The notes under the pieces are model-generated. The model saw only the letters and a list, made by a program, of their open reading frames with translations, did not search any database and was not told the origin of the DNA. The position numbers and the translations under genes were made by a program. This document shows, piece by piece, positions 4,634 through 37,663 of a stretch of DNA of 64,000 bases (position 1 is the stretch's first letter; each line of letters starts with the position of its first letter). The DNA comes from Trichodelitschia bisporula (lineage: Eukaryota). The DNA is taken from NCBI GenBank assembly GCA_010356995.1, contig ML996690.1, positions 1,086,217 through 1,150,216 on the forward strand. The letters run 5' to 3'.

Positions 4634-5603
4634 CTAGGCGGCCGTGGCCTTCGTGTCGACGGAGGACTCGGTTTCCTGAATAGGCTCCAGGGGGAGAACC
4701 GACTTGCCAAAGATGAGGCGATCGTCTCCCTTGGGGACCTCAACAGAGTTCTCATCGAGACCGTCGGGGTAGAAGCTGGCGGTTTCAAGATCGCCAAGAG
4801 GAGCGCGGTCCTCCACCATGGCTTCGGCAGCGGCGGCCTTGCGGACGACACTCGAAATTCCGGGATGGACTTGACCACAGGAAGTGCCAGCAGGACCATT
4901 GAAGCCAGGGGGGGGGAGGTTTTCCTTGTTCGCCTCAGTGAAAGCATCAGGGGTAGACGTCGAGATCTCAAGGACGGCAGTAGAATGCTCCATAAGATTC
5001 GTAGCTTCTTCCTGGGGAGTATCTTCGTAGATCTCGAAGATCCAAGAGTCCGGGATCGGATCTTTCGTGCCGGTATTCATCTCGACGACTTCTGGCTTGT
5101 CCTTGGCACCACCCAGTGCCGCCTGAAGGCTGAAGGGCGGGATCGAGGACGATTCGTCGCTCAGGACCGAGAACTTGCGAAGTCCAGAATTGCGACGAAC
5201 CTTGGACAGAGCACCGATGCGCTGGTGCTTTGGACGAGCTCCCATGGCGCTCGGACGACCACCCTGCGCGCTAGAGAGTGCCTTGGGCTTAGGCTCGACA
5301 ACCTTGAGGGCTTTCGGAATAATATCGAGGGAACCCTTGGCGCGCTTCGAAGGTGACATGTTCTCGAAATCGGAGACATCTTCGGCGATGCTGATCTCAG
5401 CCAGGCGACGCTTCGGGCTCTGCAACGGGGCCTTGCCGCCTTCGTTGATGTAGATGGCTACAAACTGGAGTGAGAAAGGTGCATTTGAAAAAAATTAAGG
5501 CTTAAAACTTACAGTTCTGGACATTCTTGATGCTGCCAAGCTTCTGGTAACGCTTCAAGGAGACCTCGCCCAGAGGCAAGCGATTGCTAGTGAGGGGGGG
5601 CAT
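4634..5603 (-). CDS. Conserved-type hypothetical protein; Acm1-like APC/C-degron-rich protein. Exons 5603-5513 and 5457-4634
   Basis: Intron 5512-5458 (GTAAGT…TAG) joins MPPLTSNRLPLGEVS… in frame to the 263-aa ORF. Motifs FEIYEDT, KENLPP and RAPLGDL, plus CDK sites SPKR and SPSKR. Confidence 0.8.
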
Positions 5604-7847
5604 TATGACGGGTTGCAGAGTGACGAGCTGATTCCAAAAGACGACCGGGAGTTGGCGAAATGATCAAGGGACGATGCGAGGTAAGAAGATGGTGGTGAGT
5701 TCTGAGAGACCACCAGGACGCTGGCAAAGCGCAGAACCAAGCACCACCAAAGTGTGTACTCCTCAGTTGCTAGCACCGAGGACGTGAGTTTGACGTAAGG
5801 GATATTCTCGCCGAAGAGTGGGGAAGGTGAGGGGAGAAGAGAGTGGAGGTTGGAGGTTGAGGAAGGGAAGGGAAGTGAATGGCGATGAGGAGGTCATTCA
5901 ATGCCCCGCGTTCGAGGAACCGAGCTTGGGCCAACACGCGCTGGATAGTCGCGACTTCTCCTCTTCCCACTTCCACTTCCCAGAGGGCGCGGCACGGCAG
6001 CACAGACAGGGAACTGGGCAGTCGCGTTCAACATGCAGCTAATCCCGATATGGACTGACTTGGCACTTCTCGTGCAGCGAGGCTTACCTAAGTGCGAGCA
6101 GACAGGGATGGCGAAGGTGACTTCATTTGCTGTGAGCGCTTCTCGTCTCTCCGTCCCCTCGTCCCCCTCCCACCATCCCTCCCAAGCCCCATCGCTCGAG
6201 TCTCATCGCAAGGTTACGCGAATCCGTCGCGACCGCGCTGCGAGCGTGTTCTGCGGCTGAGCGTGCAGCGGAGCAGAAGTTGGCAGCGCTTCCTCTGGTG
6301 CAGCAGCGCCGGCGCCGCAGCATTGGCGAAACGGCATAAACTACTTCTTTGGCTGCATGACACAATATCTCGGTTCATTATCTCCTCGCCGGCCTCTCCG
6401 CCTCCAATGCTCTCTTCCTTTATTCCCTGAGCGCCTACACTGGACGTATCGGCTGCGGCCGGCGGACTGCGGCCGGCCCGCATAAAGGGACATGCCTGGC
6501 CACCCGGCTTGCTCGCGACGCGCACGCGATTTCGGTCGGGCAGGGCCTGAATTGCTGCGCGTCAGCCGCTCCTCATACAGCTGCGCCGCCGTGTGACTTT
6601 TGAGTTTTCTCGCTGGTGTGACGGGCACGTCTTGCTCGGAACTTTGGTCACGCCAATTGATTAGTTGAAACACTGACCATTTGATATGCAGCTTCGTAAA
6701 GCGAAGGCATTGGCCTTGGGTAACTCGACCTTCATCATTCAACGTCAGAAAAATTCAAACCGGTATGTCCTCGTCCATTGTCTACATGAGTGCTGTGTGA
6801 GTTTCAACGTGCAATCGTCCAAAGTCCATAGCTTGTTCTCCAGCCGTACTGGCAGTAACGCCTCCCAAACATCGTATACCTCGACTGAATCGCCTGAACC
6901 TTGATGAGCTATCCGCCTTTCTCCTGTGGCCTCAGTCTCCAGGTCTCCAGAACTCTCCAGTCGAACCATAGAATTATGTCGCGGAACTTCAGGCTTTTGA
7001 TAGGCTTGGTGCATGCCTTCAGCGGAGTGACCCGGTTCGGCTCAACCAAGACGACCTCGAACAGACCTGGATACCACCCACTCTCCAGCACATAGGACGC
7101 AAACATCTCTCGAACTTCGGTTTCGCGAGCCTTGTGAGATAGACTGTCAGTATGCTCGGCGCTGTGGGAACGCAAAAATCGTCGTGAACCCACGGGAAGC
7201 ACACACGCACACGCGGGCGCTGCGAAAGAAAGACGACGCGGTGGGAGACGGGCATTTTGACGTTACGATACAACTCTATGGACGGCTGTGCTGTTCCAGT
7301 GTATAGACCGAAGCGATTGAGCTCTCTCCGATTCAGTCGACAGTATCCGCCATGGTAATGTGTTGCGAATGCCGATGAAGCACGAGACTAGTGCAAGTGG
7401 CCGCCGCGGTGCTTCTAGAGAACTGGGACTCAGAGCTACGGTATCGACCCGAGATGTTCTAAGGCGAGATGCAAGGTGCCTTGAGCATGGCGCTCGCTCG
7501 GGTCTTGCGCTGTGAGAAGTCCACTAGCATATACTCTGCGATGTTCTGAAGGAGCTTCTTGGGTATCTCCTACGTCACCACGACATGGACCTGAGGGCTC
7601 GCGGATATGCATCTGAACGCTATCTGTTGAAGGGCATAGTCCGTCTCCTCCACAGTGACGGGCTTTCCGCACTTCGGTTCACAATCAAGTTCTTTGACAA
7701 TGCGCTAAGCAATGGTACCGATGTTACAGTTGTCAGGTTGTCGGTAGAGATGAAATCACCACGACGCCACCGGTTTCCACGGATTCGATCAACTTGCAGC
7801 GGGTGCGGAACGAGGTGGATTTAGGGCGGACAGACAGTGATATCTGG

Positions 7848-10718: not shown

Positions 10719-12065
10719 TCAGATATCGATGTTAGTGTGAAGGACCACCTTCACAAGCTTCATGTTCCCGCTATCCACAACTTTCGTACCCATCACCTCA
10801 CCCACTTTGTCAACCAGTCTAGTCCTCAACTCCGGTTCAGACGCCACCCCATTCGCACCCTCGACAACGTCGCTCGCACCCACCATCAGCGCAGCCATCA
10901 GAACCGATATCACCTGCTCGGCGTCGGCGCGCTTCACATCGTCAGCCATGCCCTCGCGGAGTATGGCGTCATAGAGCCGGAGATTTGGGATGATGAGTGT
11001 GCGAACGCCCGCAGGTCCGACCATGCGCTGAAGAGCGAAAAGCGCACCGTAGTGAGATGGCAGTGGCTTGGTTGGGTCGAGGAAGGTCTTGAGCAGAGTG
11101 CGTGCGAGCCGAGGTTTTAAGGTATGTGAGGACTTGCCGTGGCGCTGGGAAATAGACACGATGAGCGAGGCGGCGAGCTCGCGGAGGCTGTAGACGGCGG
11201 ATGGAGAATCGGAGGAGTTGCCCAGGTGCTTCCCTGTAAGGCAGGTGATGATCGAAGGAATGAAGGACGCGATGTACGGCTCGATGAAGAGGGACTGGTT
11301 GCGGAGAATCGCTTCGAGAAGACAGAGCATTTGCCTGAGGACGAAGAGCTCTTTAATGGAGTGCGTGACCTTTTCGTTGACGAAGTGAACGAAGTAAGGT
11401 ACCAGTTGATGCAAGCCAGGGTCCGTATGTAGGGAGTTATAGGCTGCGTTCCGGTACTCCTCATTCGTCTCGTCCAGGACCGCCGTGGTGATGCGCTCAA
11501 AGTAGAGCTGCAGTTCTGAAGACAACACATGCTTCACAAGAGGCTTGATCGCAACCGAATCGTTGCCAGCAAGGGCCGATAGGCTGGGGTTCGCGCCTGG
11601 TCCTTTGGGGAGTAGATCGGTGTTGCGCGAGTCATGAGTAGAGGGATTCTGCGGTATTGAAGGTTGGACTCCGTCAACGGCAAGCCAATGGGCGGTGAAA
11701 GAGACATCGCGCGGGACCTTGGGCAGCGGCGCATTGATGAGCTTTTCGAAGTCGACCTCTTCGTCCTCGATGTAGTAGAGCGGCTGGCCCGGTCCGATGG
11801 ATGCCTCGCCAAAGCGCATCGGTCTCGTCGTGTCGTATCCGAAGAGCGGTTCCACGTCCAGGACCCTCAGCGCCTGCGTGATATCGTCGGTATGGAGAGT
11901 CGTCCTCCGCGCATGGCGCATGAACTTGAGCGCCTCCTCGATGACTTGAGAGACCCGGAAGTCGATGTCGCGGGCCAGATCGTCCACCACCTCCTTGTTC
12001 ATCTGCGAAATTCCGACGGACTCGGCCACGTCGCGGACATTGTCCGGGTTCCAGAGGGAAGACAT
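10719..12065 (-). CDS. TAF6: Transcription initiation factor TFIID/SAGA subunit 6
   Basis: H4-like histone fold (VRDVAESVGI…EEALKFMRHARR…LRVLDVEPLFGY), AHWLAVDGVQPSIPQNP, KHVLSSELQLYF, DPGLHQLVPYF. Intronless, 448 aa. Confidence 0.97.
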   Translation of the reverse strand: MSSLWNPDNVRDVAESVGISQMNKEVVDDLARDIDFRVSQVIEEALKFMRHARRTTLHTDDITQALRVLDVEPLFGYDTTRPMRFGEASIGPGQPLYYIEDEEVDFEKLINAPLPKVPRDVSFTAHWLAVDGVQPSIPQNPSTHDSRNTDLLPKGPGANPSLSALAGNDSVAIKPLVKHVLSSELQLYFERITTAVLDETNEEYRNAAYNSLHTDPGLHQLVPYFVHFVNEKVTHSIKELFVLRQMLCLLEAILRNQSLFIEPYIASFIPSIITCLTGKHLGNSSDSPSAVYSLRELAASLIVSISQRHGKSSHTLKPRLARTLLKTFLDPTKPLPSHYGALFALQRMVGPAGVRTLIIPNLRLYDAILREGMADDVKRADAEQVISVLMAALMVGASDVVEGANGVASEPELRTRLVDKVGEVMGTKVVDSGNMKLVKVVLHTNIDI

Positions 12066-13536
12066 GGCGGCCCGTCGCGGCGCGCGTCCCCTGGCAATAT
12101 GCGGCGGGGCTCTGGTGAGGTGGGGTTTGGGGGGCGATCAAAGGCGGGAGGACAGCTTGAGTGTACTGCTGGAAGCGGACAAATGTAGGTATCTGGGATC
12201 TCGGTTCAGTCGGCGTAAATGTCGCGTCGCGGAAGGCTTACGCGATTGTTCTGTGCGTGATACAATTAGGCTTAGAACGGTGGAGGTGAGTCGGCGGGGG
12301 TGTTCACTGACAAAGCAGAGTTCACTGGTGAGGTATACTGGGAAAGGGAGAGACCGAAATGGTTTATAGCAGTTGTATAGGCTTGGCTTCGCAAGTGTTC
12401 ATTGAAGGGCAATGCAAACCCCCGTGCACAGACCAAGTTCACGGTCAGGCAGTCACAAAGTCGGCCTGCCTAGAACTGGCCGGAACAATGGCTTTTCCGG
12501 TCACGACCAACGACATACACTGCTGACGCTTGGACCAAGGAGGTCCTTGCTCTCCTTCCTTGGGCGATTTCCCCACCTTTCCACCTTTCCACCTTTGCAC
12601 CTCTTCACCATTATTTCCCATCCCATCTTTCACACTTCATAGGCACTCCGCATTACAAATCATATCTGGTCTCTTCCATCCGTTCTCTAATGCGACGGTA
12701 ACCCCAACCTTTTCTCTGCCAATCGGATGCAGAAGCTCTAAATACTTGTGCCCGGAATACCCAAGTACATATCCGACCATCCCCATTCCCCACTGGGGTT
12801 GTCCGCGACAAGTTTGCCCGCTGCCCGAAGACGTTACACAGGACGCAAACAAGGCCTTTGGCTCTGAGGCTTGTGTAGCTGAACGAACAGGAAGCTTAAA
12901 ACAGGCAGGACATCCAACACTTAGAATTGTCCAACGTCAAATTCTCCACTCGTGTCTACGCCTCACTCCCAAGACCTCACGGCTTCCTTTGATCCTCTTT
13001 CCGATGCATAAGATTGCTGAGATCTCCACTGCCCTTGCTTGTCGGCGTTTCCGGAAGGGCAGCTAAGGTACCCGCACAATGCTTCCCTTATCGGATACTA
13101 AATGCTCGTTTCTTCCGGAACGTTGCATCCTTCCGATGGCAACTTCAAATCGTAGCCTCGTAGGTTGCCCAATGTAGGACGCCACGTTTTTTTTGTCATT
13201 TGGATCATATTCGCTCCCTAGCTTCTGGCCGCCCCGGCGGCTTCCCAATGGCATGTCTCCCCTAGCACTGTTGCATGCCCCGTTGCGGGTAGGGCCACTC
13301 CCTTCCCGCCATGTACTTTGCTCCCCGCAAATTCAGTCTTGCTTCCCGCCAGATGCCACGGGTGTTTTTACTCTAACATAGGAAATCCATTGCTACATTA
13401 CCTGTTGTCGACCTATTTAAACCGGCCTGCGTGCTTCTGGGAAGTCTCAACTCAGCTTCAGTCTTCAAACTTTGGTTATTGCACCTTTCCTCTCTTGACC
13501 GCTAGTTGTATCATCCAACCGCTCTAGAAAAGCAAA

Positions 13537-36192: not shown

Positions 36193-37663
36193 CTACTTCA
36201 TCTCTTCGTCTTCTAGTGCTTTTCCCAGTCCATGCTCTTGCAGCTCCTCGGCATCGATATCCGGGTCCGGCATCGTCGCATCGGCGATGTTCTCCGCCAT
36301 GTCATCGAGCTTATTGTACGCCTTCGGGTTAGCCTTCGGCTCGCCATGCCCCTTCGACTTGAACTGGTATCCCCTAACGCGCGGTCCCGGCCCTGCTGCG
36401 CTGGGCATATCGGCCTCATACGCACGACTGAAGGCCTCGACATCAGCCTCAAACGTCTCCCGGGCTATACTCTGCCGCACACCGGCGAAGAACTCGCTCA
36501 TCACAGAGTGGTTGTGAAGTTGTAGCAATACCCAGCCTAGCATCTCCTTCGTCGCGAGCAGGTGGTGGATGTACGCCCTGTGGTGGTTTGTACACGCAAA
36601 ACATGTGCACCCGGGGCGAAGGGGGGAGAGATCGATGGTGTGCTCTGCGGACCAGAGACTGGTGGCTAGTGGCAGGGGGTCGGCGTGCGGTGCAGGGGCC
36701 GGGGCTGGGAATGTGAAGTCCAGCGCGAAGCCGGCGTCTGAGGCGTGGTCGACGAAGGGCAGGATGAAGAGATCCACCCCCAGCGCTATCTCACGGAGTA
36801 TGGCCACGGGATTCGCGGGCGTGGTGAGCGCGAGCCGGGGCAGGAGTTGGAGTTCTTCCGGGAGGTCAAGGAGGGACTCGGTGTCATACACCGCTAACCC
36901 ACTTATATGCGGCCTATAATCAGGATCGCAAAGCAGCTGCGTATACCACATCTGCTGCTCAGGCGCAAGCGGGAGCAGCGGCGCGAAGACAGCGGGGTAA
37001 GGCGTCTCCTGGGCGCGGGTGAGCATGGTGCTGACCCAGAGATCGGTGCGGTCGGTGGATTTCTCAGCGCGCTTGCGGCTACTCGTCGGCGGGACGATGT
37101 CTCCAGGGGCTATTATGATATCCGGCTGCAGGGCCGCGCCGGCGCTGATGTACTCCTCGATGTCGAGGGTGCGGAACCCGACGGACGTGCATATTGACAG
37201 CGTGGCATTTGTATTTGCCGCTGGGCTCTCGACGGGGGGCACGCGCCGGGGACCGAGGATGAGGAGAGGGGCGGGGGAGTGGTGCGTGAAGGCGCGGAGG
37301 CGGGAGCCCGTACTATCGGGGTGTATCTCAAAAACTGGCGGTACGCGCGGCGGGGTCTTTTCGATGACTAGAGCGGCGCGAGGCGATGATCAGTCTTGTG
37401 CGCTCTGGCGGGGCGGGATACGCACAGTCTTCGAGGCCTAGGTAGAGGGCGCGGATGTCGGTGTGCTTTTGCAGGTTGTCGTGCGCGAGGTGCGGGACGA
37501 CGCCACGCGAGGTGTTTGCTGCGTAGTGGGGTGTTTGGATGGGGGAGCGGCTGCGCAGGGCGAGGGTGCCGAGGCGGGCGACGGGGCGGGAGAGGGTGCT
37601 GGTGAGGGCGAAGGGGGGCATCTCGGGGAGCTTGGGGGGGCTCGAGACGGTGGGTTCGGCCAT
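36193..37663 (-). CDS. QTRT2: Queuine tRNA-ribosyltransferase accessory subunit 2; one intron near 37420-37375
   Basis: ARLGTL…IQTPHYAANTSRGVVPHL, zinc site CTCFACTNHHRAYIHHLL…LLQLHN. No catalytic DSGGFQ motif. Confidence 0.88.

Follow-up and report, generated by a model that had tools for sequence, protein, structure and literature searches.

Acm1 (APC/C-Cdh1 modulator 1) of Saccharomyces cerevisiae (PDB 4BH6) is a disordered protein of 209 aa with an N-terminal D-box-like word, CDK sites, a 14-3-3 site (pT161) and a K motif. Its A motif, also called the ABBA motif, starts at F61 and is followed by a helix, and its KEN box starts at K98, giving a spacing of 37, with a further 21 from the KEN box to the D-box (PMC3690534). 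The ABBA consensus is given as Fx[ILV][FY]x[DE] in the accessible part of PMC5717348. A D-box extension of Acm1 that blocks Doc1/Apc10 was defined by Qin et al. in 2019, as related by a citing paper (PMC12401543), and the MBF/SBF regulon includes ACM1 (PMC4943722). Mes1 of Schizosaccharomyces pombe and OSD1 and UVI4 of plants are likewise small APC/C inhibitors with a KEN (or GxEN) word and a D-box in the same order; the accessible text of PMC3690534 describes no ABBA motif with a helix for these three, and Mes1 is meiotic.

In filamentous fungi, a 2018 study of Aspergillus nidulans found no obvious homologue of Acm1, Emi1 or Rca1 and described CdhA as controlled essentially by one G1/S cyclin, as far as its available text goes (PMC6078057). 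We found no description of an Acm1 counterpart in filamentous fungi in the literature searched, which was mostly at abstract level. Here, we describe a gene of the dothideomycete Trichodelitschia bisporula whose product shows the Acm1 motif layout, and which belongs to a family that extends over three or more classes of filamentous ascomycetes.

Structure of the gene and motifs of its product

The gene lies on the minus strand of a 64,000-nucleotide stretch of contig ML996690.1, which we call the window, and has two exons (Table 1). Two runs from a single sample each yielded a contig that skips exactly the intron; that these runs are RNA is our guess, and the evidence used is the spliced joint. 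The spliced product of 304 aa is identical to a T. bisporula database protein labeled hypothetical, and a query with a family member found one locus in the genome, indicating a single copy. No Pfam domain was found in the protein, and its AlphaFold2 model, made with 122 sequences, is a disordered chain (mean pLDDT, 56.6; pTM, 0.25) with no folded or catalytic domain. The model is confident in three islands, namely residues 161-190 (ABBA motif and helix), 211-220 (KEN box) and 251-270 (D-box region). A Foldseek search with the full model returned 0 matches, and a single-sequence fold of the core (pLDDT, 52) was uninformative. The gene is real and spliced, and it encodes a disordered protein.

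Table 1. Features of the gene and its upstream region, in window coordinates
Feature	Position	Strand	Remarks
Exon 1	5513..5603	-	ATG at 5603; 30 codons + 1 nt
Intron	5458..5512	-	55 nt, phase 1, GTAAGT..TAG
Exon 2 incl. stop codon	4634..5457	-	TAG = 4636-4634
N-terminal D-box-like motif R8-V14, RLPLGEV	5562..5582	-	Position matches Acm1 N-terminal DB1 (PMC3690534, accessible part)
Full CDK site SPKR, S44, inside basic NLS-like patch	5408..5419	-	
Degenerate KEN-type word ENxxP (E62, N63, P66) overlapping CDK site SPSK (S65)	5345..5365	-	S65 at 5356
Conserved block FSLQAALGG (family FSIDAALSGT)	5105..5134	-	Predicted short helix
ABBA/A motif F171-D176, FEIYED	5021..5038	-	Exact fit to Fx[ILV][FY]x[DE]
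Helix 178-189 directly behind ABBA motif	4982..5017	-	pLDDT about 90
KEN box K208-P213, KENLPP	4910..4927	-	N at P-1, P at P+2 and P+3
Central D-box R248-L254, RAPLGDL	4787..4807	-	P, G, D, L at P3, P5, P6, P7; no Asn at P9
Conserved block after D-box (F259, Y260, G263, D265, S268), candidate D-box extension	4742..4786	-	pLDDT 83-90
Seven ACGCG/CGCGT (MCB-like) words	5907..6562	.	304-955 nt upstream of ATG

A sequence-only reading of this DNA had proposed that the product has the ABBA-KEN-D-box architecture of Acm1, and all the words that it had named (FEIYEDT, KENLPP, RAPLGDL, RLPLGEV, SPKR and SPSK) do occur on the minus strand as it had stated, in the order ABBA, KEN and D. Its further claim of a disordered protein with full CDK sites agrees with the low scores of the model and with the two such sites found, at S44 and S65. 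The span from F171 to L254 is 84 aa, with 37 from F171 to K208, exactly as in Acm1, and 40 from the KEN box to the D-box. When the protein was shuffled 200,000 times, a loose ordered triple of ABBA, KEN and RxxL was obtained in 44 shuffles, and the strict form in none. The flanks of the KEN box and positions P3, P5, P6 and P7 of the D-box fit the preferences seen in the Acm1-Cdh1 structure, as far as the accessible text describes it (PMC3690534).

The likeness to Acm1 comprises the disorder, the N-terminal D-box-like word, the CDK sites, the order of ABBA plus helix, KENxxP and D-box, the ABBA-to-KEN spacing, the lack of Asn at D-box P9, the conserved block after the D-box and the MCB-type promoter words. 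There are also differences. Family members are longer than Acm1, and the KEN-to-D-box linker, 21 in Acm1, is 40 in the window protein and 26-75 in relatives. The CDK site that overlaps the KEN box of Acm1 is absent from the central KEN box of the family, and the N-terminal word, which in Acm1 is the D-box DB1 (for Cdc20), is mostly RxPF in the family. Finally, the family has extra conserved blocks, FSIDAAL, PAGRSP and LDISSDE, for which Acm1 offers no explanation.

A conserved family in filamentous ascomycetes

A profile of six sequences found 585 relatives among 8000 scored candidates, and a 16-sequence profile found 611 representatives at 50% identity (E up to 0.001), the 150 of them that were listed serving as our unselected set. 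The named members among the matches listed belong to the Dothideomycetes, Leotiomycetes and Sordariomycetes, to which we assign them from general knowledge, and no Aspergillus or yeast name was seen among the family matches listed. A length-restricted search for short yeast proteins gave 409 matches, 120 of them listed, and those examined were fragments of the same family. Members are about 300-450 aa long. After exon 1, a GT at the same position and in the same phase was seen by eye in 25/25 orthologue loci (9/25 by a stricter script pattern), and this agreement speaks for the members being orthologues of one another. In NCBI or UniRef, the name "thymidylate kinase" is given to many of them with no such domain in them, a label that looks propagated. 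Judged from these searches, the family is conserved and apparently undescribed; it may already be grouped in orthology databases, and prior notice is possible. In the supplement of a Beauveria Cdc14 phosphoproteome, none of the three words tried gave a family peptide, and the two of the eight "thymidylate" places examined were both thymidylate synthase.

The sequence-only reading had been prepared to give up its proposal if the motifs were not kept in orthologs. We found KENxxP in 150/150 listed representatives and the ordered ABBA-KEN-D triple, by a strict pattern, in 139/150, with several of the 11 misses being truncated or near-variant. In the unselected set, F171 was kept in 147/147 sequences, K208, E209, N210 and P213 each in 149/149, R248 in 145/146 and L251 in 144/146. 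The same seven positions are the sole invariant columns in an alignment of the relatives (A4), but this alignment left out 29 of the 150, including 9 of the 11 triple misses, so that the counts from the unselected set are the fair ones. The residues of the predicted degron core are the best-kept positions of the family. Identity to the window protein was 5-18% in the linkers and about 70% in the three motifs, while the ABBA-to-KEN spacing of relatives ranged over 36-46. The ABBA motif of the aligned relatives has F in 121/121, I in 120 and D in 115, and its fourth position is His in 93/121 and Tyr in 26.

Conservation is not limited to these short motifs, contrary to what the sequence-only reading had supposed. 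W169-S198 is kept as a block, as are FSIDAALSGT and PAGRSP; the pattern of the post-D-box block was found in 122/150, with G263 in 109/118 aligned sequences. The upstream ENxxP word, which that reading had not remarked on, is also well kept (E in 93/95, N in 93/95 and P in 98/98 aligned relatives). LDISSDE, between the helix and the KEN box, is kept in most relatives and resembles a SUMO-interacting/CK2 motif pattern, and a later, C-terminal ABBA-like word, mostly [FI]x[VIL]WES, occurs in 81/120. The window protein has largely lost both LDISSDE and the C-terminal WES word, but it keeps all three degrons. The N-terminal RLPLGEV, previously read as a second D-box-like word, is present at R8; among the 99 relatives with such a word, however, it is RxPFxxL in 97 and canonical RxxL in only 2. 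D-boxes of the RxxF form exist, and a D-box function of the RxPFxxL word is uncertain. At least two full CDK sites were found in 92/150 representatives; in 120 sequences, the N-terminal parts hold 227 such sites and the segment from the ABBA motif to the D-box holds 5, and the lysine content falls from 7.4% in the N-terminal part to 1.8-3.9% in the core.

On the other hand, homology searches gave no link to a known inhibitor. The sequence-only reading had called for a profile search toward Acm1 and Mes1, and no chain of either was matched in the PDB, at E up to 10, by one single-sequence and six profile searches. This null result is weak evidence, since the Acm1 target is only a 70-residue fragment and 150 of the 611 family matches were listed. 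What stands of the proposed filamentous-fungal Acm1 counterpart is an Acm1-like working, for which there is good support in the order, spacing, flanks and conservation of the motifs, in the disorder of the protein, in the CDK sites of its N-terminal part and in the promoter words; common descent with Acm1 drew no such support from the seven PDB searches. Neither a cyclin A nor a BubR1 chain came up in the PDB when exon 2 or any of the profiles A1-A6 was the query, and the ubiquitin and NADH-dehydrogenase chains that came up were rejected as short chance matches. The only signal in the domain library was the N-terminal APC/C-binding region of cyclin A (Pfam PF16500, Cyclin_N2), with weak matches in 7/122 members. 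In 4/5 checked members, the match covers the ABBA word, all four lying below the curated cut-off, and the single match above it (E, 1.5e-5) sits on the N-terminus. Unlike cyclin A and BubR1, which has ABBA-KEN cassettes, the family carries neither a cyclin box nor a TPR or kinase domain.

Upstream words and the coactivators Cdh1 and Cdc20

The MCB-like words reported by the sequence-only reading were recovered at 5936, 6023, 6216, 6518 and 6524, with two more at 5907 and 6558. The 1000 nt upstream of the gene hold these 7 words vs. 2.9 in dinucleotide shuffles, and 16/500 shuffles reached 7. Because no perfect ACGCGT was found in this upstream region, the promoter signal is modest in T. bisporula alone. 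For comparison among orthologues, 80 metagenome loci were reduced to 50 with a long upstream region, to 28 without near-duplicates and to 25 with a locatable start. In the 1-kb upstream regions of these 25 loci, which come from related species, ACGCG/CGCGT occurred 131 times vs. 59 in dinucleotide shuffles, with 22/25 above expectation, and ACGCGT occurred 26 times vs. 6.0 expected, being present in 19/25. Their downstream regions held 33 ACGCG/CGCGT words vs. 34 expected. Control upstream regions of other ORFs, taken from mechanical ATGs, were not enriched either (54 vs. 64 for 31 in the window and 20 vs. 25 for 12 in the loci). The upstream regions of the PCNA, thymidylate synthase and RNR1 matches in the T. 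bisporula genome itself had 5, 6 and 9 words vs. 1.6, 2.6 and 3.8 expected, respectively. In the window, the 1 kb upstream of another ORF, starting at 37026 on the minus strand, also has 7 ACGCG/CGCGT words vs. 4.5 expected, and one ACGCGT.

A motif search found one Cdh1 and one Cdc20 in the T. bisporula genome; Cdh1 was not among the ten loci examined from a PF12894 search and was found by the motif pattern. In yeast Cdh1, I311 and P374 contact F61 and Y64 of Acm1, according to the accessible text of PMC3690534. The T. bisporula Cdh1 keeps both residues but differs at K333 (Ala), L325 (Tyr) and I344 (Thr), and hence has 2/5 of the yeast residues that confer Acm1 sensitivity, with 3/5 changed. 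Its Cdc20 has, by eye, Ser and Ala at the positions of I311 and P374. Human Cdh1, which has Ser at the I311 position, is described as not binding the ABBA motif in the accessible part of PMC5717348. These residues are mixed evidence, leaning to a usable ABBA groove on the T. bisporula Cdh1. Compared with its yeast and human counterparts, the T. bisporula Cdh1 (L012:505-1311, minus strand) also has an insertion of about 17 Ser/Ala-rich residues within the WD40 domain, which could be a retained small intron. No Cdh1 relatives were found in viral contigs.

Proposed action and alternative explanations

We consider it probable that the protein, disordered and expressed at G1/S, inhibits APC/C-Cdh1 as a pseudosubstrate in the way that Acm1 does, with all functional steps inferred from Acm1. 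MBF-type factors would switch the gene on at G1/S, and the WD40 domain of Cdh1 would have its three degron sites filled simultaneously by the ABBA motif and helix, the KEN box and the D-box. Apc10/Doc1 may be hindered by the block that follows the D-box, and the lysine-poor core would be a poor ubiquitin acceptor. Through this combination of occupation, hindrance and poor ubiquitin acceptance, Cdh1 would be kept from its substrates, cyclin B among them. In the N-terminal half, which is basic, the CDK sites, the D-box-like word and most lysines may govern nuclear entry and destruction in late mitosis, the CDK sites stabilizing or localizing the inhibitor until its removal at that stage.

One published result bears on how far such an inhibitor could act on its own. 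From the lethality of pucA loss, A. nidulans was argued to have no other sufficient route to inactivate CdhA, as stated in the available text of PMC6078057, and this speaks against an inhibitor that would suffice by itself. One that depends on transcription at G1/S and on phosphorylation by CDK, however, would be expected to act downstream of the PucA cyclin.

If the proposal is right, filamentous fungi may have in this family the counterpart of a brake that had been taken to be absent from them. It would offer a named gene with which to test whether Cdh1 in multinucleate hyphae is under a further layer of control, its hundreds of natural variants would help to map the ABBA helix and the D-box extension, and the propagated "thymidylate kinase" label would be corrected. 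The mechanism itself is already known from yeast, which limits the surprise. A bolder version, to which we would give slightly less than an even chance, is that the family is the true Acm1 orthologue, so that the three-site pseudosubstrate brake on APC/C-Cdh1 is older than the divergence of filamentous ascomycetes from budding yeasts and has been masked by a mistaken name. The second ENxxP, the SIM/CK2-like LDISSDE and the C-terminal ABBA-like word of most relatives could then enable a single chain to bind a second coactivator or SUMO-modified APC/C as well.

Degron motifs by themselves do not tell an inhibitor from an efficient substrate. The main rival, since several conserved blocks are unexplained, is therefore an ordinary multi-degron APC/C substrate that does another job through FSIDAAL, PAGRSP and LDISSDE, its degrons merely timing its destruction. 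These three blocks are strongly conserved, the G1/S promoter words and CDK sites would suit any S-phase substrate, and ABBA serves as a degron in cyclin A and Clb5, according to the accessible part of PMC5717348. Nevertheless, we regard this explanation as unlikely: the invariant residues sit in the degrons and not in the other blocks, the window protein has given up most of LDISSDE and of the C-terminal word while retaining all three degrons, the degron core is poor in lysine and no domain was found.

A pseudosubstrate inhibitor directed mainly at Cdc20 or at a meiotic coactivator, in the manner of Mes1, seems less probable still. Cdc20 too binds ABBA motifs (PMC5717348), and the KEN and D-box arrangement of Mes1 is similar (PMC3690534), as far as the accessible texts go, and the T. 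bisporula Cdh1 is without K333. However, the promoter enrichment is of the G1/S type, the T. bisporula Cdc20 has Ser and Ala in place of Cdh1 I311 and P374, and the N-terminal D-box-like word is separate, as in Acm1. The PDB searches showed no sequence link between Mes1 and the family.

That the family is the filamentous-fungal securin is very improbable, even though a securin would also combine disorder with a KEN box and a D-box. The only named ESM Atlas neighbor of one relative (P0379) is an ascomycete cluster with 55% Securin members, at a score of 0.77, which is below the level that shuffles often reach, and the Atlas gave no usable feature match for the family core. Pfam Securin (PF04856) was matched by 0/122 members at E 0.1, and the degrons of the family are central, not N-terminal. 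Searching the T. bisporula genome itself with Pfam Securin gave no match and was uninformative, the controls being equally unmatched. Elsewhere in the genome, a separate gene, which looks like a better securin candidate, encodes an N-terminal D-box and, after it, EIEYMPP, a word typical of securins. This securin-like candidate (L096:1011-2374; about 1523860-1525220 of G000:C1, plus strand) is spliced and disordered-looking, with QEN and DEN words, the D-box RAPLGAKTTN, EIEYMPP and then LPDYP, and its single exons did not match Pfam Securin.

The thymidylate kinase of many database entries has only those source names in its favor and is ruled out by the absent fold: no such Pfam family was found in 122/122 members, a P-loop pattern occurs in 1/122, and the disordered model (pTM as above) has no P-loop NMP-kinase fold. 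Elsewhere in the window, positions 10719-12137 on the minus strand hold an ordinary TAF6 gene (Pfam TAF and TAF6_C).
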